64,000 bases of DNA, from contig NC_059431.1 of the NCBI RefSeq assembly GCF_021028975.2, forward strand, positions 30,566,001-30,630,000, read 5' to 3'. A program made the position numbers and the translations under genes. The stretch is from Sphaerodactylus townsendi. Lineage: Eukaryota. This document shows, one piece after another, positions 1,766-64,000 of this stretch. Numbering within the stretch: position 1 is the first letter of the stretch; each line of letters begins with the position of its first letter. The notes under the pieces were generated by a model. That model ran no database searches. It was given only the letters and a program-made list of their open reading frames with translations, and was not told the DNA's origin.

Positions 1766-3345
1766 CTATAACAACAAAGAAATATGTCATGGGCTCCATC
1801 CATCATTCTTCACACATGTTTTGTTAGCAAAGTATTACAAGAAAGGGCAACTAAAAGCCCAGTTTTAATCACACACTTTCATAGCACTGACTAAAATGGG
1901 ATTCTGTTCCATGCCAGTGTGATTTTAAAAAAACAGTCGAAGAAAAAGCAAAGGTGATGCCATTGTCACTATCACGGCCCTGAAAGAGCCCTTTGTAAAG
2001 TACCTCTGGGCCAGGAAACACATGAAGTATTAACCATAGCAAAACCAGCTGCTGGAATTGTGTTATAATTCATATTCTCTCATTGGTTAACTGTTTAAGT
2101 TAATGGTCAGCCTAAAAATCTGTGGCCACTAAAGACAGCACTAAGTTGCAAAGCACTTTCGTGTATTCAAGCCATATAGGTCTGTGGCTTGAGGAATATT
2201 TAACCACCAATGTTCCTTGGTGTTTATGGCATGTTTATGGATTCCTGAAAACTCAGGTAGCACTGCAGCAACTCCTCTATTGAGATTTGTGAACATTATA
2301 ACCTGTACATAGACCTATAAACCCATCTGTCATTCCTCCACAAATTCTAGGCTAGAATATTATTCTAATACCTGCAAATGGCCCTGGTGTAAATAAAGAA
2401 ACTTCAACTGGAGCAGAATGCACCAGCTCATCGTTCCAACACTGCTAATGGCCATCCACAGACTATCTTGGCAGAAAACCCATCTACACCTTCCTCCAGT
2501 CCAAAGCACAAGCTCCTGTCTCATATTTGCTACCAACAAACACCAACATGCACAATGCGAAGTGGTGGTTCAACAGGATAGAAATATATTTTACAAAATC
2601 ATCTGTGCTATGTGAATTTTAGCTGACAGGATAAAACTGTGAGGTAGCTACAGTCCATGGAAGCCTGATGGGGAAAAAATGATGATCACTGTGCCACTGG
2701 ACTTCCAGAGAAGTAGAACCATTTCCATCAGGCTCACAATTTTCCTACTCAGCTTAGCTTAATCTTTAAAAAAAAACTATAGTTTAAAAGCAAAACTTAA
2801 AAAAAACCAGATAAGCACTTTATCATTGTTCAGTCAAAGTCTAGCCAAGGGCAGGTTTGGAATTATGATAGGTTTGCTGATCATGTAATCTAAATCTAGG
2901 ACATTGAAATCATTTTAAAAGATTTCTTGATTCTCAGCTTTTTTGTGTTTATTCATGTTAAAAGGAAGACAAAAACCTCTTGTCCTGCAAATGAGAACAT
3001 TTCCTTTGCTAAATAACTCCATCCTCTTATCAACAAGCTTGTTTCTTCTGAAATACATGAGAAAGTGAGAAAGACAGCTCCCCCTCCCCCAACCCTTTTC
3101 TGCCTGTGAAAGTGCAGGCCCTTCCTGCTGCCCTTCCTGCTGCCACACCATGATTGCCCCATTCACACCAAACACCAACTTGGAAGGTTTAAAAAAAAGG
3201 AGTGGACAAATTCATGGAGGACTGAGCTGTCAACAGCTGCTAATCATGACAGATACCTACGTCCTCTAGTACCAGTAATATGCTTTTTAAAATCAATTGT
3301 GGGAAGGTATTCCACACAGCTTTTTCCTCAAAAAATCCTCAGGAC

Positions 3346-6300
3346 CACAGGTGTCAAACTCGTGGCCCTCCAGATGTTATGGACTACAGTTCCCATGATC
3401 CCCTTCCAGCATGATAGATAGGCTGTTAGACAGTGCTGGGGTGGAGTCAGCAGTTGTGGTCCACATTGGTACCAATGACATTGGGAAATGTAGCCGGGAG
3501 GTTCTGGAAGCTAAATTTAGGCTGCTAGGAAACAGGTTAAAATCCAGGACCCCCAAGGTGGCATTCTCTGAAATGCTACCTGTTCCACGCCAAGAGGGCT
3601 TAGCCAGGGGCAAGCCGGAGATACAGGGTCTCAATGCGTGCGGATGAGAAGGTGGGTGGTGCAAGGCAGAGGGCGTTTCCAGCTTTCTATTGTCAGGAAC
3701 TGGGGAACCTTTTGGGATAAGCAAGCGCAGGCCTGGTACACAAAAGCGGGACGCGGGCTTCATCTTAACTGCTAAAGAGGGAACCAGGGTTGCTGGCCAA
3801 CATTAAAAAAAAGGTGGCAGAACAGCTTTTAAACTGGATCCCTGGGGGAAAGCCAGACAGGAGCTGAGGTGAGACTTCGTCTGGAATACAGAGTCCATGG
3901 GGATGCAGACAGAGAGGGAGGTTTTTTCTAAATCAAACCACATTCACAAGTGAGGAGCACAGCAATAATGATAAGGGATAGTGTCTACAAAAGGCTAGGA
4001 GGGCAAACACACATAAATCCCCAGGTTAGGGACAGAAACAGAGGTATACAAGTGTCTCTATGCTACTATGTAGAAGCAGCTCTCAACCTAAAATGGGGGG
4101 AGCTGGAGTACAGAGTTTTGAAGGAGGACATTGATATAGTGGGCATCACAGGAGACATAGGGTGGAATGAGGGAGAACCAGTGGGATGCTGTTATCCCAG
4201 GTTACAGGCTCTACAGGAAGCTGATAGGACAGGGCTGTATTGGGGGTGGGGTGGCCTCTCTACATCAAAAGAGAGCATAAAGCGTCACATAAAATAGACA
4301 ATGTGCAGGGGGGGAGCTTCGGTTCCTCTACAGAAGCAACTGTGGGATATCAATACCAGGTGAAGCATAGTTTAACATTAATAGGAATATATTATCGCCC
4401 CCCTGACCAAAAGCTAACACAAGAGGATTCTGAGATGGAAAAGAAATTAGAGAGGCCAACAAAAGGCAAAATGTCGTGGTAATGGGCGACGTAGAACTAT
4501 CCCCAGATAAAACTGGAAAAATGCATGTTCAGGTCATAGTAAGGAGAGAAACATTCCTGGATATGCTAAATGACTGTGGTTTAGAGCAGATGGTTGTAGA
4601 ACCAACCAGGAGAGATGTGATCCTAGATCTAATTCTATAGGGACCCAGGACCTGGCAAAGGGAAGTCAGTGTGCTGCTTGAGCCGAGGGGAACAGCCACC
4701 TCACAATGCTGTCAGATTCAGTATCTCTTGCATGCTTAACAAGTGACAACTACTAATGTAGTTACATTTGCCTTCAGAAAGGGAAATTTCTCAAAGAGGA
4801 GGGGATAGTGCGAGGAAGCTGAAAGGGAAAAAATCAAGGAGAGTCAAAAATGTCCAAGATGCTTGGAGGTTATTTAAAAACACAGTCTTAAAAAGTTTCA
4901 GCTTGGAATGTGTTCCTACAGGTTAGGAAAGGCAGCCAGCCCAGTCCAAAAGAAAAGCCACCAAGGGTTAACAACAAGGGACGCTGAGGAAATTATTAGG
5001 AAAAAAAAAAGATGTCTTTTAGAAAATGGAAGTCCAACTTAACTTCGATAAAGCATCACCAGAGAGAACACAAATGGTGGCAAAAAGAGAAGCAAGTTAG
5101 CTGTAAGGGAGGCAAAAGGATTATGAGGAACGATGGCTGTGAACATCAAGACCAGCAACAAACAGTTCTTCTGCTACATCAAAAGCAGGAAGCCAAAGGC
5201 GCGGGAAGCCGTAGGTCCCGCGATGACAAAGCCGAACAAAGGGTAAAAAGTGCTAAAAAGATGACAGGGTGATTGCAGAGAAGCTGAATGAATTCTTTGC
5301 ATCTGTCTTCACTCCAGAGGAGGTTAGGACCATTCCTGCACCTGAACCAAGCTTCTTGTGGAGGTGAATCCTGAGGAACCAATCTAAGATAGTGGTGGTG
5401 ACAAGGAAGAAGTTCTTGGCAGCCATTGATAAACTAAATGCTACCAAATCCCCTGGCCCAGGATTGCATTCAACCCAAGAGTTCTAAAGAGCTCAAGCAT
5501 GAAATTGTTGGATCTTCTCACTTTAATATGCAACTTATCCTTGAAATTGTGCTCCATCCCTGAAGACTGAAGATACTAATGTCACACCAATCTTTAAGAA
5601 AAGGAACTAGGGGGACCCGGAAATTACAGGCCAGGGGCCGCTTGACATCTGTTCCTGGTAAATTAGCAGAATCTGTCATTAAAGATGTACTATAAAACAT
5701 GTACAAAAGCAAGACCTGCTGAGAAAGAGTCAGCATGGCTTTTGTGTAGAGGCAACTCTGGTCTTACAAACTTCTACTTAGAGTTCTTTGAGGATGTAAA
5801 CAGGGTATACGTGGATAAGGGGGAACCAGTGGAGCATGGTTCACTTGGATTTCCAAAAGGCTTTGACAAAGTTCCTCACCAGAGACTATTTGAGAAAACT
5901 CTGCAATCAAGGAATAAGAGGGGAAGGATCCCTCCTATGGATTAAAAAACTGGTTGAGAAACATGGTTAAAACAAAGAGTGGGTGTAAATGGGAAATTCC
6001 CACAATGGAGAGATGTCGGAGTGGTAATGTCCCCTAAGGATCCCAGTATTGGGACCTCAGTGCTCTTTAACCTATCATTCATAAATGAGACCTGGAAGTA
6101 GGTGGGTAGTGTGGTGGGCCAAGTTTGCAGATGATACCAAATTATGGTAGGGTGGTGAGGACCACAAAGGATTACGCAGTGAGCTCCAAGCTGACCTTTG
6201 ATAAATTAGGCAGAGTGGGCTAAGAAATGGCAAATGCAGTTCAATGTAGCAAAATGCAAAGTGATGCACATAGGGCAAAAAAAATCCAAACTTCTTACAT

Positions 6301-7243
6301 ACACGCTTACAGGGTCAGTGCTTATCAGTCACAGACCAGGAAAGGGATTTGGGCGCCTTAGCTGGATAGTTCCATGGGAATGTCAACTCCAATGGCTGGC
6401 AGCTGTGAAAAAGGCAAACTCTAAGTGCTGGGGATAATTAGGAAAGGAATTCGATAATAAAATTGCAAAGATTGTCACGTCTTTATATAAAAGTCATCGA
6501 AGCGACCGCGAGACTTGGAGTAATTTCCTGTAGTTCGAAGTTCTGGTCGCCAAGCATCTCAAAAAAAGGATATTGAAGAGATAGAAAAGTGCGAGAGCAA
6601 GGGCAACGAGGATGATTGAGGGACTGGAGCACCTTCCTTACGAGGAAAGGCTGCAGCCGCTTGGGGACTCTTTAGTTTGGAGAGGAGATCGCCTGAGGGG
6701 GGATATGATTAGAAGTTCATAAAATTATGCATGGGGTAGGTAACATCGTTGACAGAGAGAAATTTTCTCTTTCAACAATAATTAGAACCAGGGGCATTCA
6801 TTGAAAATGCTGGGGAAGAATTAGGACTAATAAAAGGAAACACTTCTTCAACGCTAAATTGTGATTGGTGTTTGGAATATGCTGCCACAGGAGGTGGTGA
6901 TGGCCACTAACCTGGATAGCTTTAAAAGGGGCTTGGACAGATTTATGGAGAAGAAGTAGATTTATGGCTACCAATCTTGATCCTCTTTGATCTGAGATTG
7001 CAAATGCCTTAACAGTCCAGGTGCTCGGGAGCAACAGCCGCAGAAGGCCATTGCTTTCACATCCTACATGTGAACTCCCAAAGGCACCTGGTGGGCCACT
7101 GCGAGTAGCAGAGAGCTGGACTAGATGGACTCTGGTCTGATCCAGCTGGCTTGTTCTTATGTTCTTATGTTCTTATGATGCTGACAGGGGATGATGGGAG
7201 CTGTAGTCCATAACATCTGGAGGCCACGAGTTTGACACCTATG
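3346..7243. mobile_element. Palindromic non-autonomous hAT MITE (~135 bp) split by a CR1 insertion
   Basis: TIRs cacaggtgtcaaac / gtttgacacctatg. Perfect 8-bp TSD ctcaggac at 3338-3345 and 7244-7251. An uninterrupted copy lies at 63694-63828. Confidence 0.9.
3414..7177 (+). mobile_element. CR1 LINE, 5'-truncated within ORF1 (SGNH esterase), followed by ORF2 (APE + RT) with many frameshifts
   Basis: ORF1 fragment VVVHIGTNDIG (SGNH block III). ORF2 fragments include DIVGIT, IGIYYRPP, FDKVPH, gcagatgataccaaa (ADDTK) and MQFNVAKCKVMH. The 3' tail is (TTCTTATG)n at 7154-7177. Confidence 0.93.
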
Positions 7244-7922
7244 CTCAGGACATTTTATATTGGCTCAACCTGGTTTTAAAAAAAACGCTGAACAAGCTAT
7301 TTTTCCCCTAAAGTCGGCATAGTCATCTCCTGCTTGTCATACAGAGCTCAGGAAATGACTTATTTCTCCTGCACAATCACACAGCTCTCACTTTCGGTTT
7401 CTGTCTTCATCAGAAATCAAACATTTTGGTTGGCTAATTCCTTCTTATTGTTATTAGCCATTTGCTAAGCACTGAATAAGCGCCTGCCAGCATCACTGCT
7501 GGTTGTTTTTTTTTATAAAGTGCCATATAATTCGCACTAGTGTTTCCTGCCAATTCTGGCAATATATAGCTTTCTGTTTTCTTTTTTTGTTTTTAATTTT
7601 CCACGACGTGATTCCCATATTGTGTGTTTATGTCTTTGAAGACATCTCATCAAAAAATTTAAAAAACAAAAAACTATATATTGCCGGAATCAACAGGAAA
7701 CACTAAGTTGAATCATGTACTTTATAAGCTAAAGAAGGGGACAGCAGCGATGCCTGCAGAGCAAATGTTCTGGGGCTTAGCAAATGGCTGGTGGCACAGA
7801 GGAGTTAATGGGCAGAAAACAGCAGATGCGAGCATGGAAATGGGTTTTTTAAAGATGTCCCCAGGACATCTTATCTTGGTTGTGTGGAAAAGATCCATTT
7901 GTCTCCATTTGTTTGGCTCTTA

Positions 7923-8073
7923 GGCCCCTTCCGCACATGCAGAATAACGCACTTTCAGTCCACTTTCACAACTGTTTGCATGTGGATTTTGCTATTCCGC
8001 ACAGTAAAATCCAGCTGCAAAGTACATTGAAAGTGGATTGAAAGTGCATTATTCTGCATGTGCGGAAGGGGCC
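7923..8073. mobile_element. Palindromic MITE, PIF/Harbinger-like
   Basis: Long TIRs ggccccttccgcacatgcagaataa / ttattctgcatgtgcggaaggggcc, flanked by tta and taa. A second copy lies at 20242-20382. Confidence 0.75.
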
Positions 8074-9317
8074 TAAATAGTTGCTCTTTTCTAAACCTTC
8101 AACAGGTCAACATCCATTTTGATGCAACTGCATCTGCTGTTTCCCAGCACTGAATTTGTCTTTTTCACAGGGGCAGCAGGGCATGCTGCATGGGTTGGCT
8201 GGGAACCTTCTGAGAGAGATTAATATGCTATTTCCGCATCACCCAGCATGCTTGTCACAAATCAACACAAATCTACACCCCACACCTTGTCCTATGTGCT
8301 GTAGCCCTCCCATGGATCTGACCCTGAGCTGGGCCCAATCAATCTTGCTGGCAGCCCCAGTGAGCATTATGCAACATAGTGCATTCCTGTTCCAAGTCCT
8401 TGGGATTCATGAGAGAAAAGAGATGAATTTAAATCACCAGTTTGGAGGGCAACAAAATCACACTTCCTCTGTTTGAATGACACAGCTGGTATTGCCTGCA
8501 AACCAATTCACAGAAGTTAACAGCTGAGAAGGGGTGTTTGCTTACATAAACTTCCCACTGTGCACCGCTTTCTTCTTTTCACACTACTGTCATGCTCCAT
8601 GAAAGTTAACCTTACCCAAGCACTAAAAAGGGAGAATATGATGATAGTGCATTAACTATAATGAGAATCATTTCCCAGGACAAATCATTCCTTCCATTTA
8701 ACCAGGAAAAAAATGGACAGCTGCTTGTTTGCCCTACCGGTATATTATGCAAATATGCAATTTCCACCTTTCCTTATCAGGCTATGACAATCACATGCAC
8801 TCCCGTGCCCACAGTTCAAGTTTGCAAGGAGCCACCCAAGACACACGGGGAAGGAAGGAGCTGTGGTTGCCTACATACAGTTGTGGATTCAGGCCCTACA
8901 ATCTTCACAAAATGCCTGGAAACCCCTTTCCCTGCCTGAGATCCCAGAGAGTCACTATTAGTCAGAACAGGCAGTGCAAAGCTAGATGAACCAATGGTCT
9001 GACTCTGTCCAAGGAATCTTCATGTGTTCATCAAGAAGAAAACAAACAATTAAATGAAAAGTGACATTTGTGTCTTGCAAACAGGGGTCCATTCTTCACA
9101 GCACAAATAAAAATGTCCTGAGGACAGTAAAAGAAGCGTTTTGGGGAGAAAGCGCGGCCGCGGCTTACCCGCAGGCCGCCGTTGCGGGCCGGACGGGACC
9201 CGGCTCAGGCGGCGCCGCCCGGTCAGGGCAATGGCGTGGCCTCAGAGCACGGTCGCGCATGCACGTTGGCCGGGCTCTGGCAGGCCGCGTCATATGCAGG
9301 CGCCAGCAGGCGCTTGC

Positions 9318-9323
9318 ATATAA
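9318..9323 (+). promoter_or_regulatory. Candidate TATA box of the element's 5' module
   Basis: atataa in an otherwise very GC-rich 5' terminal region, upstream of gag. Confidence 0.45.
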
Positions 9324-10145
9324 GGAGGCGGCCTCGTGGGCGAGCCCAGTCTCGCCCAGGACGCCGGAACGCGAAGATCGTCGCTGGATCGCTCAGCCGG
9401 GTGGGTCCTTACAGAAGACGGGGTCGGGTCTTCATTCACTGGGCTTCACAACGCCCCCCCCCCCCCGCGCGCAACTTGCGGCTGCGGCTTTCTTCTCCGG
9501 CGGCAGCCGGGTAAGCCGGTGGCGGGGCCTTGGGGGCTTCCCCGACAACGCAGCTTTGCGGGGCCTCCACTGAGCCTCCCCTACTCCCCGGACGGCATTG
9601 GTGCAGGATTTTCGGGCCGAGCCGGGCCTTGCGCCCCCCCCCCCGCGACATTAGAGGGCTCCCCCCCGGCGTTGCCCGCATGTTTTTTGGCTGGAGGAGC
9701 GGCGCCCGTTCACCCGGCCGACTGGTCGGGTCCCTGGAAGGGACCTCAAAGTAAACGGGGCGTGGGAGTTTCCCCCGCCTGGCATCCGCCGCTCCCGCCC
9801 TCAGCCCGGCGGCCCGGCAGACGCGGCCCAGCTGGGGTTGGGGAGGGGACCTACTTTGGGGATCCCCCGAGTGGTGCTCTGCGGCAGGGGCGGATCTTTA
9901 CCCTTCCACTGGTTTCTACTTCATCGGCGGCTCGTGGCAATATCACGCGCGGTAGACTGGCGCGAGGTTAACCGCAGCTTCTTTCTCAATTTCTCCTCAG
10001 ATATTTAGCACTGCAGTGCTTGGCGCAGGTGGCTCGCGAGAGTCATAGGTTGGTGGGTTGAGGGCTCAGGTGCTCCTAGTGGGTCGGTGTCCCCCAACTC
10101 AGCTTAGTATTTTCTGTTCACTGTCCCAGTTTTCATAACCGGGCA

Positions 10146-11651
10146 ATGGCACCCAAGAAAGGGGAGCAGCGTGCGCCCTCCACTAGTGGCCGGGGCACTA
10201 GGACTAGTGCCCGGCGCGCCGTGGCCTCTAAGGGTGACCGGCAGCGGGCGGTGGGTGAGGCGGCGTCCCGTAAGGCCAGCACGAGAGCAGGCAGTCCCGC
10301 CACGGGGCAGAGCAAGGGGCGCTCTTCCAGCACCACAGCCCGGAATAAGGCCACCCCGGCCCATTCAGGGCCCAAGACCGCTTCCAAGGCCCAGGCCGCG
10401 AAACCTGCACCTAATAGGGGCGCGGCAGGCACAAGAGGGGCCCCTAGTTCCAAGTGGCCTAGGCGCTCGGATGCTGAGCTGTCCCAGCGGCCCCCCCCGT
10501 CAGGGGCTGCAGATGTCAGCAGCCTCATCTTTAGGAATTTGGCGGACACCTTTAGCCAGCTGGCCCAAGGGGCACCTGGGGGGCCTGCTGCCTCCTTTGC
10601 ATCTACGTCAGCGGCCCCGCAGCGCAGGGTGGGACCCCCGCGGGGGCAAGGGAGTGGTACTTCCTTGCAGGTTGTCGAGGAGGAGGGGGCGGTGACCTCG
10701 GCATCTGAAGGGGAGTCTGACGAGAGGGGGTCAGTCGTTCACCCACCGCGTAAGAAGAATCGGAAGTCGCGGAGACGTCGGTCGTCACGCCGCAGAGACT
10801 CTTCATCTTCATCGAGTGAGTATTCCTCAGACGAGGACTCCCTTCATGAGGATGGCGCCTTTTGGGAAAACAGGGCAACCATCCCCATGCTGCCACCTTG
10901 TCTCAGCAGTCGCAGGGATAAGAGCCTGGGCTTTCCGGAGGGGGCCACCCCTCCCCCCGCCCCCTTTTCGGGCACCAAAACCGTTAAAAATCCCCCAGGT
11001 CGCCATCTCACCAAGAAATTGAAGGAGAGGGCACTCAATGGCTACTACGTGGATGTGTTTGACTTCATTCGCCCAGGGTCCTCACCAGGAACCACTGGCC
11101 CCTCCCCGGCCACCGCCAAAAAAGGGAGGAGGGTGGAACGGTCATTTGACAACTGGCTTTCTGGTTTTGGGGAGTACATGGCCTTGATTGCGGCGGCTTA
11201 CCCGCTGAGGGCCTGGCAGCTGGGGGCCCACCAGTGTCACGTTTTGAGAGCCAGGGTCATCGGGGGTGACTTGGCGGCGATTACTTATGATGAAGAGTGC
11301 CGCAGGGCGGTGTCTGACACCAGTAACATCAGGTTGGACACGATCAATAGTGAGGCCTGGACGACCATGGTCCAGCCCTTCGCACGTTCCCAGAGTCAGG
11401 GTTTTAAAAGGAGGGGCAATTTCAGGGGCGATGGCCCCCGCCTGGTTTGCTGGGAGTATAACCAGGGCAGGTGCCAGAGACAAAAATGTAAGTTTGAGCA
11501 CTCATGTGAATCCTGCTTCGGTCCGCACACCAGGCTGGCCTGCCCGAAGGGGAGGAAATTACAGCCCTTTCGTGGAGCCCGGCCCTCTGCCAACTCAGTT
11601 CCTAGGAAGGATGGGGGGTCAGGCCCGCCTGCAGCACCCAGTTCTGCCTAG
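10146..11651 (+). CDS. gag: Gag-like ORF1 (501 aa)
   Basis: ATG in good context (gcaATGg). Low-complexity N-terminus with a basic/Ser-acidic tract, then a DIRS/Ngaro gag-like core (GYYVDVF..SFDNWLSGF..YDEECRR). C-terminal Cys/His finger CWEYNQGRCQRQKCKFEHSCESCFGPH..C. Confidence 0.85.
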   Translation: MAPKKGEQRAPSTSGRGTRTSARRAVASKGDRQRAVGEAASRKASTRAGSPATGQSKGRSSSTTARNKATPAHSGPKTASKAQAAKPAPNRGAAGTRGAPSSKWPRRSDAELSQRPPPSGAADVSSLIFRNLADTFSQLAQGAPGGPAASFASTSAAPQRRVGPPRGQGSGTSLQVVEEEGAVTSASEGESDERGSVVHPPRKKNRKSRRRRSSRRRDSSSSSSEYSSDEDSLHEDGAFWENRATIPMLPPCLSSRRDKSLGFPEGATPPPAPFSGTKTVKNPPGRHLTKKLKERALNGYYVDVFDFIRPGSSPGTTGPSPATAKKGRRVERSFDNWLSGFGEYMALIAAAYPLRAWQLGAHQCHVLRARVIGGDLAAITYDEECRRAVSDTSNIRLDTINSEAWTTMVQPFARSQSQGFKRRGNFRGDGPRLVCWEYNQGRCQRQKCKFEHSCESCFGPHTRLACPKGRKLQPFRGARPSANSVPRKDGGSGPPAAPSSA

Positions 11652-13272
11652 CCCCACAGACCTTGACTCGTTACACCGTATCGCTCTTACTCCTATTAAG
11701 ATCACCCCATTAGCTGCTTTACTTGCAACCTATCACAACCGGGCGGCCGCTCAGTTTCTTTTGAGCGGTTTTTCTCAAGGTTTCCGCATCCCCTACACGG
11801 GCCCTCGTACGGCGACTGTCTGCGGCAACTTGAAATCGGCTCGTGAGTTGCCCAGAGTTGTGGCCGCCAAGTTAGCAAAGGAGGTGGCCGCCGGCCGCAT
11901 GGCTGGCCCCTTCTCCGACCCGCCCATCCCGAACCTTAGGGTCTCTCCTCTGGGGGTGGTCCCCAAGAAGGCCCTGGGCGAGTTTCGCCTCATACACCAT
12001 TTGTCCTACCCGCGGGGTTTCTCCGTTAACGATTTTATTGACCCCAAGCTCAGCTCAGTGAGGTATGCATCACTGGACCATGCCATCTCCTTAATCAGAG
12101 CATGTGGCCTGGGAGCGATGCTGGCGAAGTGTGACATTCAGTCTGCTTTCCGCTTGCTGCCCATTCACCCCGACGACTTCTGCCTATTGGGCATTAAATT
12201 CGATGGTCATTGGTTCATTGACAAGGCCATGCCAATGGGCTGCTCGATAGCTTGCGCGGCTTTCGAATGCTTCAGCTCTTTCCTGGAGTGGGCTGCCAAG
12301 GGCCGGGCAGCCAGCCCTCATATCACTCACTATCTGGACGATTTTTTGTTTGTGGGCCGGGCCAGTTCCAGTGAGTGCCTGGACAGGCTTCATACATTCG
12401 AGGCCCTGACATCCGAGCTGGGGGTCCCCCTTGCAGGGGAGAAGACAGAGGGGCCGTCCACCTCTCTAGCCTTCTTAGGGATTACCCTTGACACTGTGCG
12501 GGGCACGTCCAGCCTGCCCATGGATAAGGTCAATAACCTGAATGCGGTCTTACATGATATGGCCAGCAAGCAGAAATGCACCCTTAAGGACGTCCAGGTC
12601 GTGTTGGGGCACCTGAATTTCGCTTGCCGGGTCATTGCCCTGGGCAGGCCTTTCTGCGCCAGATTGGCACAGGCCACGCGGGGAGTTAAGGCTGCCCACC
12701 ACTATATTCGGGTCACCGCGGGCATCAAGGCCGACCTGGCGGTGTGGCTAGAGTTTCTCAGGCATTTCAATGGGACTTCTTTGTGGCAAGCTAGATTCAC
12801 ACCAGAAGCCACTCTACAGGTACACTCTGATGCTTCAGGCAGTCTCGGGTTGGGAGTCTATTTCAGGGGCAGGTGGTGCGCCCAACGTTGGCCGGTGGAG
12901 TGGGAGGCTACGGGCCTCCTCCGGGACCTCACCTTCCTGGAGTTGTTCCCCATTTTGCTCGCTGTATATCTGTGGGCCCCTCACTTTGTGAACCGCAAGG
13001 TGGTGTTCTGGTGTGATAACCTAGCCGTAGTGCGGGTCATCAACCGTCAGTCTTCACGCTCTGAGTGGGTCATGCGCTTGGTCAGGAGGTTCGTGGCGCT
13101 TTCTTTGATTAACAACATCTCTTTTGTGGCCCAGCATGTCCCAGGAACCGACAACGAACTGGCGGACGCTCTTTCTCGCTTTCAGATGGTGAGGTTTTGG
13201 CGTTTGGCTCCCGGGGCGTGTCCACACCCGGACCCCTTCCCACAGGAGCTGTGGGATCTTGGCAACACCTGA
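11266..13272 (+). CDS. pol: Reverse transcriptase / RNase H (ORF2); true start uncertain (ATGs at 11287 and 11611)
   Basis: RT motifs KCDIQSAFR, MPMG and YLDDF. RNase H motifs SDAS, LELFPI, WCDN and ADALSR. The frame is uninterrupted and +1 relative to gag. Confidence 0.93.
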   Translation: MTWRRLLMMKSAAGRCLTPVTSGWTRSIVRPGRPWSSPSHVPRVRVLKGGAISGAMAPAWFAGSITRAGARDKNVSLSTHVNPASVRTPGWPARRGGNYSPFVEPGPLPTQFLGRMGGQARLQHPVLPSPTDLDSLHRIALTPIKITPLAALLATYHNRAAAQFLLSGFSQGFRIPYTGPRTATVCGNLKSARELPRVVAAKLAKEVAAGRMAGPFSDPPIPNLRVSPLGVVPKKALGEFRLIHHLSYPRGFSVNDFIDPKLSSVRYASLDHAISLIRACGLGAMLAKCDIQSAFRLLPIHPDDFCLLGIKFDGHWFIDKAMPMGCSIACAAFECFSSFLEWAAKGRAASPHITHYLDDFLFVGRASSSECLDRLHTFEALTSELGVPLAGEKTEGPSTSLAFLGITLDTVRGTSSLPMDKVNNLNAVLHDMASKQKCTLKDVQVVLGHLNFACRVIALGRPFCARLAQATRGVKAAHHYIRVTAGIKADLAVWLEFLRHFNGTSLWQARFTPEATLQVHSDASGSLGLGVYFRGRWCAQRWPVEWEATGLLRDLTFLELFPILLAVYLWAPHFVNRKVVFWCDNLAVVRVINRQSSRSEWVMRLVRRFVALSLINNISFVAQHVPGTDNELADALSRFQMVRFWRLAPGACPHPDPFPQELWDLGNT

Positions 13273-14168
13273 TTGCTGAGGGAGTGTTGGCATCGATTGC
13301 ACCTGCCACGCGGCGGGCGTATCAAGGAGCCATTAGGGCCTTCATTTCCTTCCACCAGTCGCAGGATGGACCGGCTGAGCCATTGTTTGGAGATACATCA
13401 CTCCTGCGCTACCTTGCCCATCTCCGTTCACAGGGTCGGGCAGCCAAGACCATGCGGCTGCATTTGGCAGCAGTATCCTTTTGCTGTAAGGCCTCTGGCA
13501 TTAATGACCCTACCGCCTCTTTCCTGACCAGGCAGGCAATTAAAGGATGGGGCAGGACCAGCCCCCGCAAGCCGGATGGGAGGCGCCCAATCTCATTAAG
13601 TTTGCTGTCCCGCCTGGCGTCAGCCTTGCCCCGCATTTGCTCCTCCGGTTTTGAATCGGTACTTTTTCGGGCCACTTTCAGCCTGGCCTTTTTCAGGGCT
13701 TTCCGGCCCGGGGAACTCGTGAGCACGTCATGCAGCAGCTCCAGCTCCAGGCCCCTCCGGGTCGGGGATGTGCAGGTTATGGGCGCCACCCTGGCCATCA
13801 CACTGCACCAGTCCAAAACTGATCAAGGGGCCAGAGGGTCTTTCATTACCATGCAGGAATCCACAGCGCAGGGCCCCTGCCCAGTGGCTGACACTGTGGC
13901 GTACCTTGCAGTTCGCCCCAATCGGCCTGGACCTCTACTTTTACATAAGGATGGGTCGTTTTTGTCTCGCTACCAGCTTATGGCAGTCTTCAAGTGCTGC
14001 CTGTCTGCATTGGGAGAGTCACCCTCTTCCTATGGCCTTCATTCCTTCCGGATCGGGGCGGCATCCACGCTTGCCGATCTGGGGGTCCCTGCCAGCAGGG
14101 TCATGGACGTTGGGCGCTGGAGGTCAGGGGCATTCAGGACTTACATCAGGCCGCTTACCCCGGCATGA
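13197..14168 (+). CDS. Tyrosine recombinase (ORF3); first ATG only at 13452
   Basis: Full catalytic set R (AFRPGEL), K (SKTDQ), HxxR (HSFRIGAAS), W (GRW) and Y (FRTYIR). The N-terminal core-binding segment (ASIAPATRRAY) lies upstream of the first ATG. Confidence 0.93.
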   Translation: MAFGSRGVSTPGPLPTGAVGSWQHLIAEGVLASIAPATRRAYQGAIRAFISFHQSQDGPAEPLFGDTSLLRYLAHLRSQGRAAKTMRLHLAAVSFCCKASGINDPTASFLTRQAIKGWGRTSPRKPDGRRPISLSLLSRLASALPRICSSGFESVLFRATFSLAFFRAFRPGELVSTSCSSSSSRPLRVGDVQVMGATLAITLHQSKTDQGARGSFITMQESTAQGPCPVADTVAYLAVRPNRPGPLLLHKDGSFLSRYQLMAVFKCCLSALGESPSSYGLHSFRIGAASTLADLGVPASRVMDVGRWRSGAFRTYIRPLTPA

Positions 14169-14218
14169 CGCGCCTACCTAGTTACAGGCCCTCATTTCTT
14201 TTCTCTTAGTTTCTGCAG

Positions 14219-14790
14219 GTGCCGGAAAAGTCGTCTGGGTGGTGGGCCACAGTATCGTCTACTGGGCTTCCCAGTACGCTGCATCGTCAGGCTGGAGTCA
14301 CGACCTGGGCCTCCGGCACCACCTGCACGTTTTCTGGTTTGGTTTCAGAGGCATGCGTTGGCATGACCTCCTTCCTCTCCTCTGGACCAAGATTCGAGCC
14401 TTTGGCCCTCCACAAGCTTTGATCATCCAACTCGGGGAGAACGACATCCCTGCGATTCGGCGGGTGGAGCTGCTCCAGTCAATCATCAGAGACATTGGCA
14501 TCATACACCGCCTCGCCCCTAAGACGACTATTTTCTGGTCCCACCTTCTGGAACGCCGCGTTTGGAGGGGGGCGCTGGACCCCCGCCGGGTGAACCGGGC
14601 AAGGGAAAGGACTTGTAGGGCCGTTGCGTGTTTTGTACTCGGGCTAGGGGGGCGGGTGATTCCGCACCACGACATTTCGTTCGGTTTAGAGGCTTTGTTC
14701 AGGGCAGATGGTGTTCACCTGACACAGTGGGGCATGGATCTTTGGTTACATGACCTGAGGTCGGGTTTGTGCGATTGGCTGGACATTTAG
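14219..14790 (+). CDS. SGNH/GDSL-type hydrolase (ORF4), probably a spliced 3' exon
   Basis: Blocks VWVVGHS (Ser codon at 14251), RGMRW, QLGENDI and DGVHL. The frame is open from 14182, but the first ATG (14353) is downstream of the Ser. A polypyrimidine tract with AG at 14208-9 and 14217-8 precedes it. Confidence 0.82.
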
Positions 14791-15170
14791 GAGGCATTTG
14801 GCGGGAGCAGGGGTGGTTCCCACCCCGCTCTCTGGCGGGTTGCGCATGGGGGGTGATCGTTTTAGTGAAGGGGAGCTACGGGAGCTCTTCTGGTAACACC
14901 TCCATAAGAGGTGAGGGCGGAGCAAGCCGAAGGTTGGGACGCCCGGCAGGGGCTACCAAGGCTTGCGCCCTGGCAGCAGGTTGGAACAGGCACCAGAAAG
15001 GGGTCTATCGCTCATCTGGCAGATCCTGATCCAATCTGACCTTCATGCTCAATTCCTCCAGCAGGCGGGCTGAGGAATTATTTAACTCTGGGGGACAGCA
15101 CTTGTGCTGCCCAGATCCTTTGATCCCCCCCATGCTGCGCCAAGTTTTTGCTTCCAATTAATGTCTTGCC

Positions 15171-15176
15171 AATAAA
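15171..15176 (+). terminator. Polyadenylation signal in the element's 3' module
   Basis: aataaa ~110 nt from the 3' end, followed by GT/T-rich sequence. Confidence 0.55.
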
Positions 15177-16215
15177 TATCTCTGGCTATGGCCAAATTGT
15201 TTACCCACTATAAGTTGTCATGCGTTTTATTGTGGTCAAATAGTCGGGGTTGCATGAGCCACCTGGTTCCCGCCTCGGCCTGCAAACTCCACACACCTTT
15301 TTTGCCAAGAAGTCTTCAGGACGTTTCTGCTCAACTCATCGCATTTAGAAAATGCTAAACTAGCAATCTTTTTTCTCACCATCCCCGGAAAAGGGGGAGC
15401 TGAGTACACAGGTACATTGGGTATATGGTGGAACCAACTGTTATTATATTGAGATATCAATATAATTTAGAAGTTGATGTGTTTTAGCTAAGCTCGTGCG
15501 GTTGAGCTTCTTTTCTTTGACTTTCACTTCCTGGCTACTGAAAGATGTCAGCAGGATAATTATGAAACAGAAAGGAGCCAACAACACGGAAGGGGGAGTG
15601 AGAAGAAAGGTATGTATTGCAATTTGAGGGAATGTGAAGGTTGAAGCTGGGTCGGCTGGCTATGGGTGGAAGGAAGATGTCCAGGGCAAAGCTGTGCTCA
15701 CTGATAAATGTGCCCTGCTCTGGTGGTGAACCAAATTAAAGTCACACTAGAAGTGGTGTTGCTTGCCGTGGAGAGAATGGAAAGTGAAAGTAGGGCTTGA
15801 GAAAATATGTCTGTACAGGAAATCTTGCTGCAATGGACATTTGCCCCTGCTGTGAAGTAGGCACTTGGTGTGTCATCAGCCCTGGTGTTTAATCAGCTCC
15901 CCTCACTCAAAAATGAGATTTTTCTACTGAAATGGCTGATTACAGCTAAGTCACCAATATTCTGCACAAACTGATATTTTAGGAGATAAGATGAACCTCC
16001 AAAAGCCTTTTTTTCTGATCAACCATATGTCTTACTTTTGACGTGGAGGCACCATAATAGTAATATTTAGTGCAGGAACTAGATTTCTTAACAACCTCAG
16101 CTTGCAGACTGAGACCAGGAAAACAATGAGGGAGAGAAGAGGAAGGAGAACAGCAGGACAAAGGAAGGAAACACATGGAGAAAATGAAAAATAACTGCAG
16201 GTTAGGAGCAGGTTG

Positions 16216-17193
16216 GCGAGGCACCTGTGGGACCCTGAGAGCTGGAGTGAAAGATCTCTATTAGCAACTTGAAGCTGAAAAGATAACTGTGAGACTGTTA
16301 CACAAACTGATAAAGCAAGAAAGAAAAGGCCTGATAGGCTGCGGAACCTGTACAACTCTACTGTTAAACTGGTAGAAACCCCTTTGTAACCAGTGTCTTC
16401 CCTGTTTGGTTTTAGGTAGCCACATTCTGATTCTCCCAGGCTGTCAATGATTCAAGGTGGGAGGGGGTAAAATCATGAGTACGGTCTGTTCTGCTGCTCA
16501 GTGTTATTGATTCTGTGTCTTTGCTCTACTGCATCAGTTTTATCTCTGGTAAATTTAAATTTCTGCTTAGTTTTAGGGGGGCGGCTTTCCTTTTTTAATA
16601 ATGATTTTTATTAAGTTTTTATGAACTACAAGTTGCTAAAACAAATACAGAGAACAAAATAGTGAACCAATCGGGTTAGCTTTCACGTCGGATTTAACTG
16701 GTTCTGCGAGGCACCTGTGGGACCCTGAGAGCTGGAGTGAAAGATCTCTATTAGCAACTTGAAGCTGAAAAGATAACTGTGAGACTGTTACACAAACTGA
16801 TAAAGCAAGAAAGAAAAGGCCTGATAGGCTGCGGAACCTGTACAACTCTACTGTTAAACTGGTAGAAACCCCTTTGTAACCAGTGTCTTCCCTGTTTGGT
16901 TTTAGGTAGCCACATTCTGATTCTCCCAGGCTGTCAATGATTCAAGGTGGGAGGGGGTAAAATCATGAGTACGGTCTGTTCTGCTGCTCAGTGTTATTGA
17001 TTCTGTGTCTTTGCTCTACTGCATCAGTTTTATCTCTGGTAAATTTAAATTTCTGCTTAGTTTTAGGGGGGCGGCTTTCCTTTTTTAATAATGATTTTTA
17101 TTAAGTTTTTATGAACTACAAGGCTGCTAAAATAACACAGAGAACAAAATAGTGAACCATCGAAGGCTTTCACGGCCGGATTTAACTGGTTCT
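16216..17193. repeat. ~490-bp tandem duplication (16216-16705, 16706-17193)
   Basis: Both units start gcgaggcacctgtgggacc. They look identical over ~420 bp and differ by scattered indels in the last ~70 bp. Confidence 0.9.
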
Positions 17194-17331
17194 GGTGGGT
17201 TTTCCAGGCTGTGTGGCTGTGGTCTGGTGGATCTTGTTCATAACGTTGCGCCTGCATCTATGGCTGGCATCTTCAGAGGTGTATCACAGAGGGAAGTCTG
17301 TTACACACTGTGACACTGGACCCTCTACAAC
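17159..17331 (-). mobile_element. Penelope-like element terminal fragment with degenerate hammerhead ribozyme
   Basis: tcgaaggctttcacggccgg..gcatcttcagagg resembles lizard Penelope ends. It is flanked by the 14-bp direct repeat caaaatagtgaacc (17145-17158, 17332-17345). Confidence 0.7.
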
Positions 17332-36974: not shown

Positions 36975-39239
36975 ATTATAGTGGTTTTTCTCAACTGAAA
37001 AAACAAACACTATCAGAAATAACTGAATACACCTTTTAGGTAATAAAGTCAAGGGTCAGATATTTCCATTTTTAAAATCAGGATCACTGAAAGTATATCA
37101 TGAGCCAAATCTCAGGTGGTTCTGTTGCATATTTGTGTTTTGTATTTAAAGATCCTTGGTTCATCTCACATAGGATTGCAGCGGCTAAACATGTTTGGCC
37201 TACAGGTGAATTTCAGATGAATTGAACTACAGGTGAATTTCAGTACTTTGACCTACAAGTGAATTTCAGTACTTTCAGGTAGTTAGTTGTGGTAGTCTGT
37301 GGACAAAATTCAAGTTCAATAGCACTTAAAATATTCCAGAGTTTAAGCCTGAGTGAATCAGGCTTAAAATCCAGCGTTTGTCACCTCAAAGACTCTGAAT
37401 TTGGTGGAAAGACATACAAATGTTTTAAATAAATCAATATTTCTAACTGCTAACCTTCCATCTCCATTCTTTTGTTATGCAAATGACTCACATGAGTGGC
37501 CAGTGTTTAGTCAATGATTACAAATCAGACTGATAATTAATTTATTCTATTTATTTATTTATTTATATACATGTCTATCCCACCCTATGACTGAAGGTCA
37601 CAGGGTGTATTACAACATAAGACATAAAAATCACCTAAAATAATTATAAAACAATAAATTCTTCTTAAAATTGTCACATCCCCTCCAAGCCAGGATTCCA
37701 AGGGTGGTTTTGAGCATGGCGTGCAAGAACAACACAGACTCTCCGTGACAGAACAACTGTTCTGCAGGCAAAAGGTTTCAGTTTCAATCCTTGCCAGTGT
37801 TACCAGGGACCACCTTCCCAGATGAATGCTTTCTGTTCTGACTCCATCTTTTTGTTGTAACTCACTTCAGCAGCCATTTTAGGAGATTGCAATACCATAC
37901 TTTGGAGAAGGTGAAATTAAGGCTCTCCCCAGGCTATGCAAATGAGTGACCAAACGTTGGTATTGGGGAAACTAATTCACTGATGGAAGATTTCCATGCC
38001 TATCCACTGTCACAGGGGCTTGAAAAGCCAGACACCCACCTAGATGTATGTAGTTCCTGAATAACACGTCGGCCCTTAATCTGTTCCAATCAATAAACCT
38101 GCCTCTTGTTTCTCCCAAGTTTTCTATTGCAGATATCCTGCCAGTTCAAAACGAAAGGGGGTTGGCTTTCTTATTCTGGCAAGGTGACTTTTGGCATTCA
38201 GCATCTAATGTATGATTTCATCATGCTGCCTTCCTCAATTCAAAATGAAATAGCATCTTCTGCACTAAACAGATCACCTAAGGTACACTTTCAGTCTCCA
38301 CAATCTAAGCAGGCAGCACTCATTCCTCCTTCCTTGGTTTATGCAACTGCTCATGTTTGTCATTCCATGAGTCATGCAAGGAGCAGCAAACACAGACATT
38401 TATCACAGAGCAGACAGCTAAATTTTTCTATGAAATACAGCAAAGGGGTACCAGTTTGGACTGTGAAAAATAAGGGGCACTTTAGACATGCAAGTTCTGC
38501 AGTAAGGAACTTTCATTATTTTCTATTCTATTCCACATTCCACAATCATCAAAATCAACTAGCCACAGTAACTCTGGACCATATGGCAGTTCTACTCTAG
38601 ATGTAGGGAATGGCATGACAAATCCTTCCCCTCAAAAATAAATCCCTAAAAGTCTTGCATGACAGTTCGCCATGTGCATGTGGAGTTTTATTTTATTGCA
38701 TCTCCAAACTCCCAGACTGTTTTGTTCCTACTGCCTTTAGGTAAAAGTTTACTACTTGATTCTGATGATTGTACAATTTTCCTTCTATTATTCTGGACCG
38801 AGGGAAACATTTTTAATACAAAGTTCACAAATTGAAACAGTGTGCATCTGGCAATGCTAAATAAAGGTGGAAAACAAAACTACTGGCCTTTATATGTACC
38901 AATTAAAAAGTACTGAAGATATTTCAAATGTCTGCATCACTACAAAGTACATTTATTTCATGTATTTTATTTTTTATTGCCACCTGAGGGAGGGACATGC
39001 TAGCATAGAGATAGATACATCTGAGGTAAATAAGCACACAAACACTTTATTATGGTAATAAAATTGGCCATAGCCATAAGCATTTTATTGGCAGAAAGAA
39101 CAGGAGAGCATGTGGTGCAGCATGGGGGTCTGATTGAAGGGTTGGGCAGCCAAGCAGGCTGTCTGCAACAAAAGTTTTTCCCAAACCCAGCTGTTTGAGG
39201 GAAAGAGCTTTTACCCTGAGTAACAGGGAGAAGCAATGA

Positions 39240-39880
39240 AGGTGGGGAATTCCAGACTGGGTGGGCCGCATTCTGTAGATTTCCCCAAATTGCTGAAGGG
39301 GGTGCAGGCGGTCTCAGCCCAAGTCTGGGCTGCCAGACCCCTGGTTTGCTCCCCCCTACCTCATAAGGAGGTTCCCAAAAGGGGTTAGAAATCAGCTTAC
39401 CCCATGCCAGATCAGTCCCCCATGCGCCAATCGCCAGATGGCTATGACAAAGAAAGCAAAACTAGAGCCCTGTACCCCTACTAGCCATAAGGGAGTGGTG
39501 GGTGGGACAAGTTCGCCGACAGAGGAGGAAGAGGGCCCGCACGTGTCTCGCCCGCTGAGACACGATGCAACGTGAGGAAAAAGAGACAAAAAGGGGGGGC
39601 GAACTCACGCACTGGAGCTCCGAGCTCCGAGGTCACAAGTTAGCCAACGGAGGAGGAAGAGGGCCCACACGTGTCTGGCCCGACCATATATGGGAAGGGG
39701 GCGGTCCCTGGCTGCTGACGCCAGAGTCCTGCGCCCGGCACTGGGCATCCAATCGCCTGCGCCTGCTATGTAGACGTGGTCCCTTTGGAACCTCCCCCCC
39801 AGCCGAGGAGGGAGGAAGAGCAATGCGACCCTCCCCAGCCGGCAAATGGCGGCCGCGGTGAGTCCCTGCCACCCCCTTCA
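39240..39880. other. GC/CpG-rich insert, probably the 5' UTR/promoter fragment of a retroelement
   Basis: Local CpG enrichment and an internal 48-bp direct repeat (39507-39554, 39635-39682). No recognisable protein. Confidence 0.4.
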
Positions 39881-40610: not shown

Positions 40611-41034
40611 TGTAATTTTTTAAAAATAATCTAGTTTTAAGTTTTAAGTATTATATGTGGATTGTAATCTTCTAGCAGCCAGGGCAAAAAGTGAAGCTCT
40701 GAATAAAATAAATGGGTTGATATCAGATAAAAAGAGCCTCGGTTTATTGAGGTCAGAACAAAAATTTAGACCTCTTACAATGTCAGGAAGAATTTTGGGT
40801 CTGGGTTCTTTATAGAGAAGACAGTATAAAACACAGACTCACTCTGAACAGCACAAATAACACATCTTGGGAACATGAAAAAGAGCATCTTAAGGAGGAA
40901 CTCTGCAGTTTTTTCTCCCCAAGACATCCCTAGGATGCCTTTTTTCAGCTGAAGGTGTCTTTTTAAAAAGTTGCACCTTCAGCTGAAGTGTGTATCTTCT
41001 TTCGTTAAGCTGCCTGCAAAATATCTCCTGCTGT

Positions 41035-61643: not shown

Positions 61644-63693
61644 GAGTTTTCCACTGAAAAACCAGTTGTGTTAATTTCCTAATAAAACTATCTTGAATTC
61701 AAATGTTGAAGAATTCAAATTTTATCCCACCCCCACCCCTGCAGTTCTGCACTGTATAACTGATAAATGTTCCCTTGTTCAGCTGCATATACACAGAGCT
61801 TGGTGGTGGTGAGCACAAGAACCTCTGGAACAAAGCCAAGGCATTTTAATTCTGCTGCTTTACAAGAGGCAGAAGAAAGCAAGACAGAACATTAATTCCC
61901 TCACTAACCTTCTTGGTTTCAAGTATTAATGCTGCTGTTTTAAAGCTGCACTGAGGAAAATCCTGGAGATTTTAAGCTTGGATAAGCTTGATGAAATGGT
62001 CCCATCACAAATTCAGTTAGTTTAGATTACTGACTTGGTGAATTAAGATGAATCCAGAAATATTCTTAACGTACTGCAAATGTTGGTATCTGTGTATATT
62101 TCCCAAGTAATTTGCATGCGTAAATTCTGTCCATGCACCCACACACACACCCATAAACACACATATAATGGATTAGATTATATTTCCATGGATTAGATAA
62201 CATTTCCATCATTTGGAAAGGAACTCTAACCTAAATTGGGTTGATTATTAGATTGGATGTGTGATCTTGTTGTTCACTGTGCTGAGCCCGGTTTGCTGAG
62301 GTAGGGCAAGATATAAATCTAAAATAAAGTTAAAGTTAAGTGTTTGTGACAATGCAGGCCACATGTATAAGGTGCTACTGAATTGTTTTCAAGCATTTAC
62401 CGATTTGTAAGATAATGCAAACCTATGCCCAGTTTACCATGAGAATTAACCGAATTTATAAACCGCAACACTTTTTCAGATGTTACATCATGGCAATAAA
62501 ACAACCTTACATAGAAGGGCAATGCTAATAAGCCATTCAAGATAACTGAAACATTTAAGTGACAGAACAGCCATTCTTTAGAAAGGACTGATCTTTTGTG
62601 AAGCATGATCAAAGCTGGCTTGATAATCAGTTAAGTATAGTAACTTGTTACTTCAAGAACACTGATTTTGCCTCCCTGAAAACATACTAGTTGGTCACAG
62701 GTAATAAGGTCAAAATTTCCTATGAAATACTATATATATAATAATAAAGGAAAGCTAGTTTAGCAGTAATTGTATCTGTAGCCCTCCTTCCATGTTAGTT
62801 TACATCTTCCTTTTACCTGTACCATAAAATATGAACAGGAAAGACTTTGCTTTTGACCTATGTCAACACCTATAAAAGAATTTTTATCAGTTGTCTATTG
62901 TTATTTGGCTGCTAACTGTGAGGGTACTTCAACATAAAGTCACAGTAATTCCTTAGCAGCAGGCAGTGCCTAGCAAGAAACATTTTCTGAAATTAGTAGG
63001 TGAAGGTCGAAGCAAACGAGATGCTGGAGGAGCTATGACTGTATCTTCCCAGCAGATCTTGAAGATCTACAACAGCCATGCATAGCTCTGATTCATATCA
63101 GACCAGTGCTAGAAGGAAGGACAACTCACAAAATTTTTCCAAATACTGGCATGCCCATGCAGTCCTTGAGATTTAAGGAAATTCAGGTATTTGGAAGGGA
63201 GGGCACTGATTTCCACTGATACCCTCCTCCCACTGAAGACCCCTATTTTGCCATTTATGCTGACCGTGGAAGTCCAGTTAGTTAAAGAATAAGGTTTCAG
63301 AGGTCTCAGTGGACTGCAGAGGGAAGCAGGAAAAATCTGCAGGTCACTGGATAAACACTGCAGTTACAGCTGTTCCACATAATATTTTCATGCCCACTTT
63401 TCTCCTAAGTATCTCAGGAACACTTTAAAAAAGATGCTTAATAACATCAGAATCCAATCTAAAACCTTATGCTCCCACCAGCAGCACATTCCCTTTAGCA
63501 CAGATACAGATGGCTCAAGAGTTCTAAAAATAATGGTTTTGCTGCCTCAGCAGAAATTCAGGAGGGCTAGAGGCCCTCTCATCTCATCCAGGGCTGTCCA
63601 GAGGTATGGGGCAGCCAGTACAAGGCTGAAGCATAGACTGTTACTAAATCTGCCTTAGACAAGAAAGGTATGGATAATGGAAGTTGCTGGGAG

Positions 63694-63828
63694 CACGAGT
63701 GTCAATCTTGCAGCCCTCCAGATGTTATGGACTACAGTTCCCATCATCCGCTGCCAGAATGATGCTGGCAGGGGATGATGGGAACTGTAGTCCATAACAT
63801 CTGGAGGGCCGTGAGATTGACACCTATG
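63694..63828. mobile_element. Palindromic hAT MITE (intact copy of the 3346-7243 family)
   Basis: Near-perfect palindrome centred on ccagaatgatgctgg, flanked by the direct repeat ctgggag. Confidence 0.88.
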
Positions 63829-64000
63829 CTGGGAGGAACAAAGTTGCCACACAGGAGCACTGTGGGAAAGACGAACCTTCAAGTGTATGGGAGTCAGGTC
63901 ACTAAGGAATACCCATCTTTCTGTTTTCTATTAAAGGGAGCACAGGGGTTTAGCTTTTTGGTTAGTGAAATTAGAAGGAGGGGAAAGGAATGGACACCAC

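Follow-up and report, generated by a model that had tools for sequence, protein, structure and literature searches.

A Ngaro-type element of Sphaerodactylus townsendi with single terminal repeats, and its empty insertion site

The element described here lies at 9152-15283 of a 64,000-nucleotide (nt) stretch of the Sphaerodactylus townsendi genome (contig NC_059431.1, positions 30,566,001 to 30,630,000, forward strand; hereafter the window, to which coordinates refer unless a contig is named). In the Ngaro-SGNH families of Xenopus the open reading frames (ORFs) are accompanied by split direct repeats, all or part of which has been lost in many copies; the DIRS-54_XT consensus is without split repeats, yet two of its copies have them (PMC9210276). 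The window element shares with these amphibian families the order gag, reverse transcriptase/RNase H (RT/RNase H), tyrosine recombinase (YR), SGNH, the lack of a methyltransferase and the size of repeat A (~230 base pairs (bp) here, 236 bp there), whereas repeat B is ~450 bp in the squamate element and 152 bp in Xenopus. The passages of PMC9210276 consulted mention for Ngaro neither an empty site nor a crossover core or terminal hairpin.

Ngaro elements and solo AB repeats were described from Cafeteria, where reduced forms were proposed to arise by recombination between repeats (PMC8547959); the form found in the window corresponds to the mirror product (B1×B2 instead of A1×A2). The Cafeteria elements have no SGNH frame, and the reduced form there is devoid of ORFs, whereas the window copy keeps them. 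DIRS-like elements (PMC3266345, PMC7192593) show the same crossover within a shared trinucleotide (AAA, AAT and AAG among those listed) without target duplication, but they differ in possessing an internal complementary region, inverted terminal repeats of ~120 bp and, frequently, a methyltransferase; no such feature was found in the window element. Within the literature searched, no statement of shared-trinucleotide insertion was found for Ngaro, and closure of the Ngaro complementary DNA (cDNA) and its insertion have so far been modelled from the repeat layout alone.

The window element is best explained, with a probability of about one half, as a Ngaro-type element from the SGNH-bearing clade of vertebrates, recently inserted and intact. 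On this reading it is a genuine one-repeat form (A1-ORFs-B), and the full form of its family is A1-ORFs-B1-A2-spacer-B2. Four frames are open on the plus strand over ~6.1 kb.

10146..11651, + strand: gag-like ORF, 501 amino acids, CCCH finger at the C-terminus (zf-CCCH_10, E 0.006, weak and below the cut-off)
11620..13272, + strand: RT/RNase H ORF, YLDD present (RVT_1, E 7.9e-10; motifs)
13113..14168, + strand: YR ORF, 351 amino acids from stop to stop (Phage_int_SAM_4, E 3.2e-6; motif positions)
14182..14790, + strand: SGNH/GDSL hydrolase ORF, 202 amino acids from stop to stop (Lipase_GDSL_2, E 9.2e-7, just under the cut-off; motifs)

The gag, RT/RNase H and YR frames all run in one orientation, as expected of Ngaro, and an SGNH hydrolase frame lies downstream of the recombinase, as expected of the vertebrate type (PMC9210276). 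The recombinase contains R198, K235, H310-x-x-R313, W336 and Y344, which we take to be its expected catalytic set. The closest named RT relatives are lizard proteins (58-63% identity). No methyltransferase match was obtained with Pfam after RNase H, the ORF stopping ~30 codons past the last RNase H motif. Neither DIRS-type inverted repeats nor an internal complementary region was found by a repeat search of 8000-17000 or by BLAST of the element against the window; inverted matches such as the 21-nt pair 9161-9181/9498-9518 number 109. No relatives of the element were found in the viral contigs searched. The element stands out as a GC-rich and CpG-rich island (CpG observed/expected 0.5-1.0, compared with 0.08-0.35 in the flanks).

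An original prediction, made from the letters of the window, had placed the termini at 9149..15286 with a shared AAA as a 3-bp target overlap. For the empty-site search, contigs from four of ten listed runs were aligned to 8700-15750. In three of the four runs contigs connect 9148 directly to 15284, omitting 6135 bases, and three letters fit both sides. The joint was present in X1 (one contig, depth 19.7), X4 (one contig, depth 32) and X5 (two contigs, depth 55.1), representing two studies. It was not present in X3, which gave a contig with one difference in 293 bases; contigs of this kind show presence, not absence.

9149..9151, + strand: left AAA crossover core, common to the target (empty-site joint, three of four runs)
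15284..15286, + strand: right AAA crossover core (empty-site joint)

The predicted termini are thereby exact to the base, and the junction letters were confirmed against the sequence. A single AAA stands in the empty site, with no target duplication and with the crossover inside AAA, the mode of insertion that is characteristic of YR retrotransposons; the predicted 3-bp overlap was borne out. Since one empty-site contig agrees with the left flank at all of 449 bases, the insertion is recent. The locus thus supplies a base-exact filled and empty site, a 3-bp core and an intact recombinase frame.

Split direct repeats in the order A1-ORFs-B1-A2-B2 are missing from the window copy, which was hence filed as a reduced form. 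The predicted absence of a second copy of either terminal module was upheld by the repeat search (8000-17000) and by a BLAST comparison (word size 7) of element and window, and local alignment of the two element ends gave a score of 39-40 against a shuffle mean of 39. The single repeats, the signals associated with them and a related derivative near 39 kb that was used for delimitation are as follows.

9152..9380, + strand: repeat A, single copy, comprising the promoter part and ~50 bases past the TATA-like box (contig depth; analogy)
9282..9334, + strand: 53-nt inverted repeat containing the TATA-like box at 9319-9323 (z -6.33; 0 of 200 shuffles as stable; BLAST E 1.5e-5)
14805..14831, + strand: hairpin directly ahead of B, like that before B1 in canonical relatives (z -4.29; folds of nine relatives without shuffles)
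14831..15283, + strand: repeat B, single copy, AATAAA at 15171 (alignment to the 39-kb derivative; empty-site joint)
38977..39878, - strand: related ORF-less derivative with A1, a short intron-like piece, a second A-end copy, a C-rich spacer and B (alignments; ends inferred)

The right edge of repeat A may be placed at 9380 by likeness to the 39-kb derivative (A of ~240 bp); contig depth is high through the bin 9172-9407 and 7- to 60-fold lower thereafter. The TATA-like box lies 170 bases in from the left end, and AATAAA 112 bases in from the right. The 53-nt inverted repeat could gate the promoter. It adjoins a second one at 9329-9366, and the TATA-like box is in the 3' arm of the first. Repeat B of the window is B1-like on entry, through a hairpin right after the last ORF, and B2-like on exit, into host DNA.

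In the 39-kb derivative the A end is repeated over 48 bp (39554-39507, matching 39682-39635), a C-rich spacer begins at 39506, and B aligns with that of the window element. Read in this way, the derivative holds an A2-spacer-B2 remnant. It is located in an A-rich target and its ends, as inferred, share AA.

Relatives were taken from the best 80 of 496 metagenome-contig loci, 24 genome-contig loci and 19 long-contig stretches. Canonical relatives are organized as A1-ORFs-B1-A2-spacer-B2 with a hairpin preceding B1, and the spacer begins with a C-rich run after A2 in 10 of 12. The A2-B2 spacer (L081, 6186-7443; L051, after 5528) measures ~1.26 kb in L081 compared with 85-140 bases in L055, L089, L095 and L097. 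Distant animals share three short signals: a hairpin where A begins, another ahead of B1, and the C-rich spacer that follows A2. Of the 24 distinct loci in long contigs, 12 were scorable, the remaining 12 (L094, L102-L104, L141-L144, L146-L149) being too broken and dropped before counting; L136 duplicates L090. Full split repeats were seen in seven of the 12, B1-A2-B2 without A1 in one and the one-repeat form in four; three of these four keep all three frames open and have a second copy of neither A nor B. One further locus, L150, is a candidate solo A-spacer-B.

A quick RT tree with a midpoint root, which includes split-repeat elements and no named Ngaro reference or DIRS outgroup, placed the window element in a squamate clade nested in a clade (support 99) with L081 and L007. 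L081, of this same RT clade, has an SGNH frame and full split repeats. One-repeat copies were scattered beside split-repeat copies and formed no single clade. The window element is probably not a new architecture; for annotators, the lack of split repeats in an intact Ngaro copy is common and does not in itself define a new class.

The one-repeat form is attributed, at even odds, to real loss of A2-spacer-B2. The most serious competing explanation, less probable and still substantial, is assembly collapse: the true locus would be canonical, and the assembler would have jumped from B1 to the flank behind B2. Both routes predict an identical sequence. The B1 and B2 of a young element would not yet differ over their ~450 bp, and the four open frames together with a site that is empty in three related samples leave little time for a deletion. 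Sister metagenome contigs of a single family present both pictures, L052 and L059 reading A-ORFs-B-flank while L050, L051 and L064 show a B/A junction or A-spacer-B. Yet, 1 kb from the element, two tandem 490-bp units with 97% identity are retained in the window assembly, and collapse is unnecessary in view of intact one-repeat copies in contigs of 360-705 kb adjoining resolved canonical copies. Because such copies stand side by side in long contigs, real loss is at least as plausible as collapse. That A2 was removed by either B1×B2 recombination or collapse had been proposed in the original prediction, and this pair of alternatives is supported.

Several further points weigh against an intact one-repeat element produced by real loss. 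Short contigs are suggested by two gaps (208 and 203 N) within 35 kb, and the locus is known from the assembly alone. Depth in sibling copies (A 1.0-3.0×, B 2-14× the ORF depth, from one site each for A and B or from bins inflated by short overlapping contigs) is only a weak hint and could equally come from ORF-less derivatives. No 3'-to-5' (B/A) joint was seen among the 15 of 163 joints listed, though canonical siblings should yield one. The long-contig relatives are distant (best RT segments 34-42% identical) and their sequencing method is unconfirmed; the relatives compared include no close full-length squamate sibling. The left ends of L093 and L135 were placed by the hairpin signature and that of L086 by eye, L145 being unplaced. 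Finally, one metagenome family (L060, L065, L072, L073) is without repeats in all four of its short contigs.

The joined ends had moreover been read as inverted arms around AAA and proposed as a YR binding and crossover site. The palindrome is real and only modestly above chance. Its arms are 80-92% GC and only the 2 bp beside AAA pair perfectly. When compared with shuffled arms, p for arms of 12, 14 and 20 nt was 0.112, 0.036 and 0.013 by anchored score and 0.19, 0.048 and 0.10 by folding energy, respectively; 2.6% of random GC-rich pairs scored equally, and p was 0.025 with a flexible spacer. The 39-kb derivative has no joined-end palindrome (p = 1.0). Natural B/A junctions reached p < 0.05 in two of 11 cases; pooled, the 11 score 42 against 31.6 ± 3.9 (p 0.02), a slight enrichment in a sum that includes the mis-centred L055 and L140, and the L073 junction, for which the core had been set wrongly, was left out of the fixed-arm test.

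The insertion target itself is palindromic.

9111..9148, no strand: left half of the host target palindrome (empty-site fold; contig depth and paralogous contigs over the site indicate multiple copies)
15287..15326, no strand: right half of the host target palindrome (empty-site fold)

A single 83-nt hairpin, its loop containing AAA, is predicted for the empty site (z -2.3; 13 of 600 sampled AAA sites were equally stable). Across its centre 30-31 pairs are formed, at least 28 being found in none of the 600 sampled sites, and AAA is flanked by perfect 4-bp arms, which is true of 24 of the 2173 AAA sites in the window. The 83-bp palindrome is imperfect (outer arms of 15 bp, 13 of 15 pairing) and belongs to a multi-copy host repeat. 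Weak look-alikes are present at 3297-3345 and 40840-40903. A palindromic target as a general rule was rejected: nine other empty targets, reconstructed with overlaps approximate by a few bases, have 0-11 cross-centre pairs. At the window locus it is a single striking event and not yet a rule.

We consider it doubtful that the AAA-centred palindrome is a symmetric att-like site and that the recombinase prefers targets with inverted arms round the core. The window junction does rank first of the 13 tested (score 7, p 0.025), the pooled natural junctions are enriched, and the perfect 4-bp arms and 31 cross-centre pairs of the empty target are rare among AAA sites. These points are opposed by the nine other targets (0-11 pairs against 30), by the lack of the palindrome in the related lizard element, and by the natural junctions, only two of which are individually significant and two of which are mis-centred. 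The right arm of the palindrome, in addition, makes better sense as the 5' side of a hairpin in A.

9154..9179, + strand: hairpin at the start of A, placed as in the relatives, ten pairs, one bulge, 5-nt loop (z -2.83 over a 30-nt span, -0.45 over a 40-nt span)

A hairpin within the first 40 bases begins at +4 to +7 in all 14 invertebrate relatives with a placeable A start (L035, L049, L051, L055, L064, L073, L089, L090, L095, L097, L137-L140), with z of -2.0 to -5.3; nine of the 14 are sequence-related and not independent. Over 16 elements the mean z is -2.9 at the A start, compared with -0.31 to +0.21 for 12 other spans between -100 and +120. In ten aligned A starts, four of nine pairs show changes on both sides. 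The single-strand fold of the joined ends gives 10.7 expected pairs within A and 0.7 across the core; the dominance of the A hairpin in this fold has no bearing on the binding of double-stranded DNA. In the window element the hairpin is significant only over a 30-nt span chosen post hoc, and the 39-kb derivative has none (z +0.57), both of which count against it. As far as the sequences indicate, recognition by the recombinase, or in closure of the cDNA, is more likely to depend on the hairpin just within A, combined with the B end, than on the AAA-centred palindrome. The inverted arms of the original prediction thus exist, and their role as the YR site is weakly supported. In the long-contig group a TTAA motif recurs over the junction at a spacing of ~10-13 bases, resembling arrayed binding sites.

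Neither a hairpin at the A start nor intact one-repeat copies as a class were found in the literature searched; the founding Ngaro paper (doi 10.1093/molbev/msh072) and the Poulter reviews fall outside this search, so both may be in print there.

That the family replicates as A-ORFs-B without split repeats, closing its circle via the joined-end palindrome, is improbable: it would accommodate the lack of a B/A joint among the joints listed and the four contigs L060, L065, L072 and L073, which read ORFs-end-flank with differing flanks and no repeats found, but these contigs are short and exposed to collapse too, the internal positions of the TATA-like box (170 bases) and AATAAA (112 bases) leave neither end with a template, and the 39-kb derivative retains an A2-spacer-B2 remnant. 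The family-wide A-ORFs-B architecture entertained in the original prediction is not supported, given the second A and C-rich spacer kept in that derivative and the repeated origin of one-repeat copies within split-repeat lineages.

With the one-repeat form as a product of real loss, the following course of events may be proposed. A full parent would transcribe RNA from inside A1 to inside B2, and both ends would be rebuilt from its internal B1/A2 junction. The circular cDNA would close with B joined to A, as suggested by the layout and by the published YR circle model, and the recombinase would cross the junction AAA with a host AAA. Loss of A2-spacer-B2 after insertion, by recombination between identical B1 and B2, is put forward tentatively; slightly less likely is loss before insertion, the inserted circle having held only one B/A junction. 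RNA of the window copy would start ~200 bases inside A and stop ~90 bases short of the B end. With no internal junction from which to rebuild its ends, this copy would be a protein source but a dead-end template.

A more speculative proposal, which we rate as unlikely, is that a circle with two identical B/A junctions is resolved by its own recombinase into two one-junction circles that insert alone, yielding A-ORFs-B helpers and solo A-spacer-B copies. Both the two-junction circle and its resolution are inferred. The recombinase would read an asymmetric site consisting of the B end, the core and the conserved hairpin 4-7 bases inside A. If true, this would be the first defined attachment signal of the superfamily within the literature searched.

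Some minor observations were made. A donor-like site and polypyrimidine acceptors were read from the sequence at 9511-9512, 9999-10000, 14208-14209 and 14217-14218; an intron in the 5' leader is likely, as are acceptors just before the SGNH coding part. Long contigs assigned to prokaryote bins G001-G004 (L086, L089, L090, L093-L095, L097, L102-L104) carry animal-type Ngaro elements and other repeats, so that the bins seem to contain host DNA. L091, L092, L100 and other G005 contigs consist entirely of a Ngaro segment duplicated in inverted (fold-back) orientation, which probably arose as an artefact of amplification or assembly. The tandem duplication located 1 kb from the element spans 16216-17194 (490 bp, 97.4% identity). 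A short palindromic repeat of ~140 bp, transposon-like in character, occurs as whole copies or halves at 3343-3416, 7175-7246 and 63690-63830.

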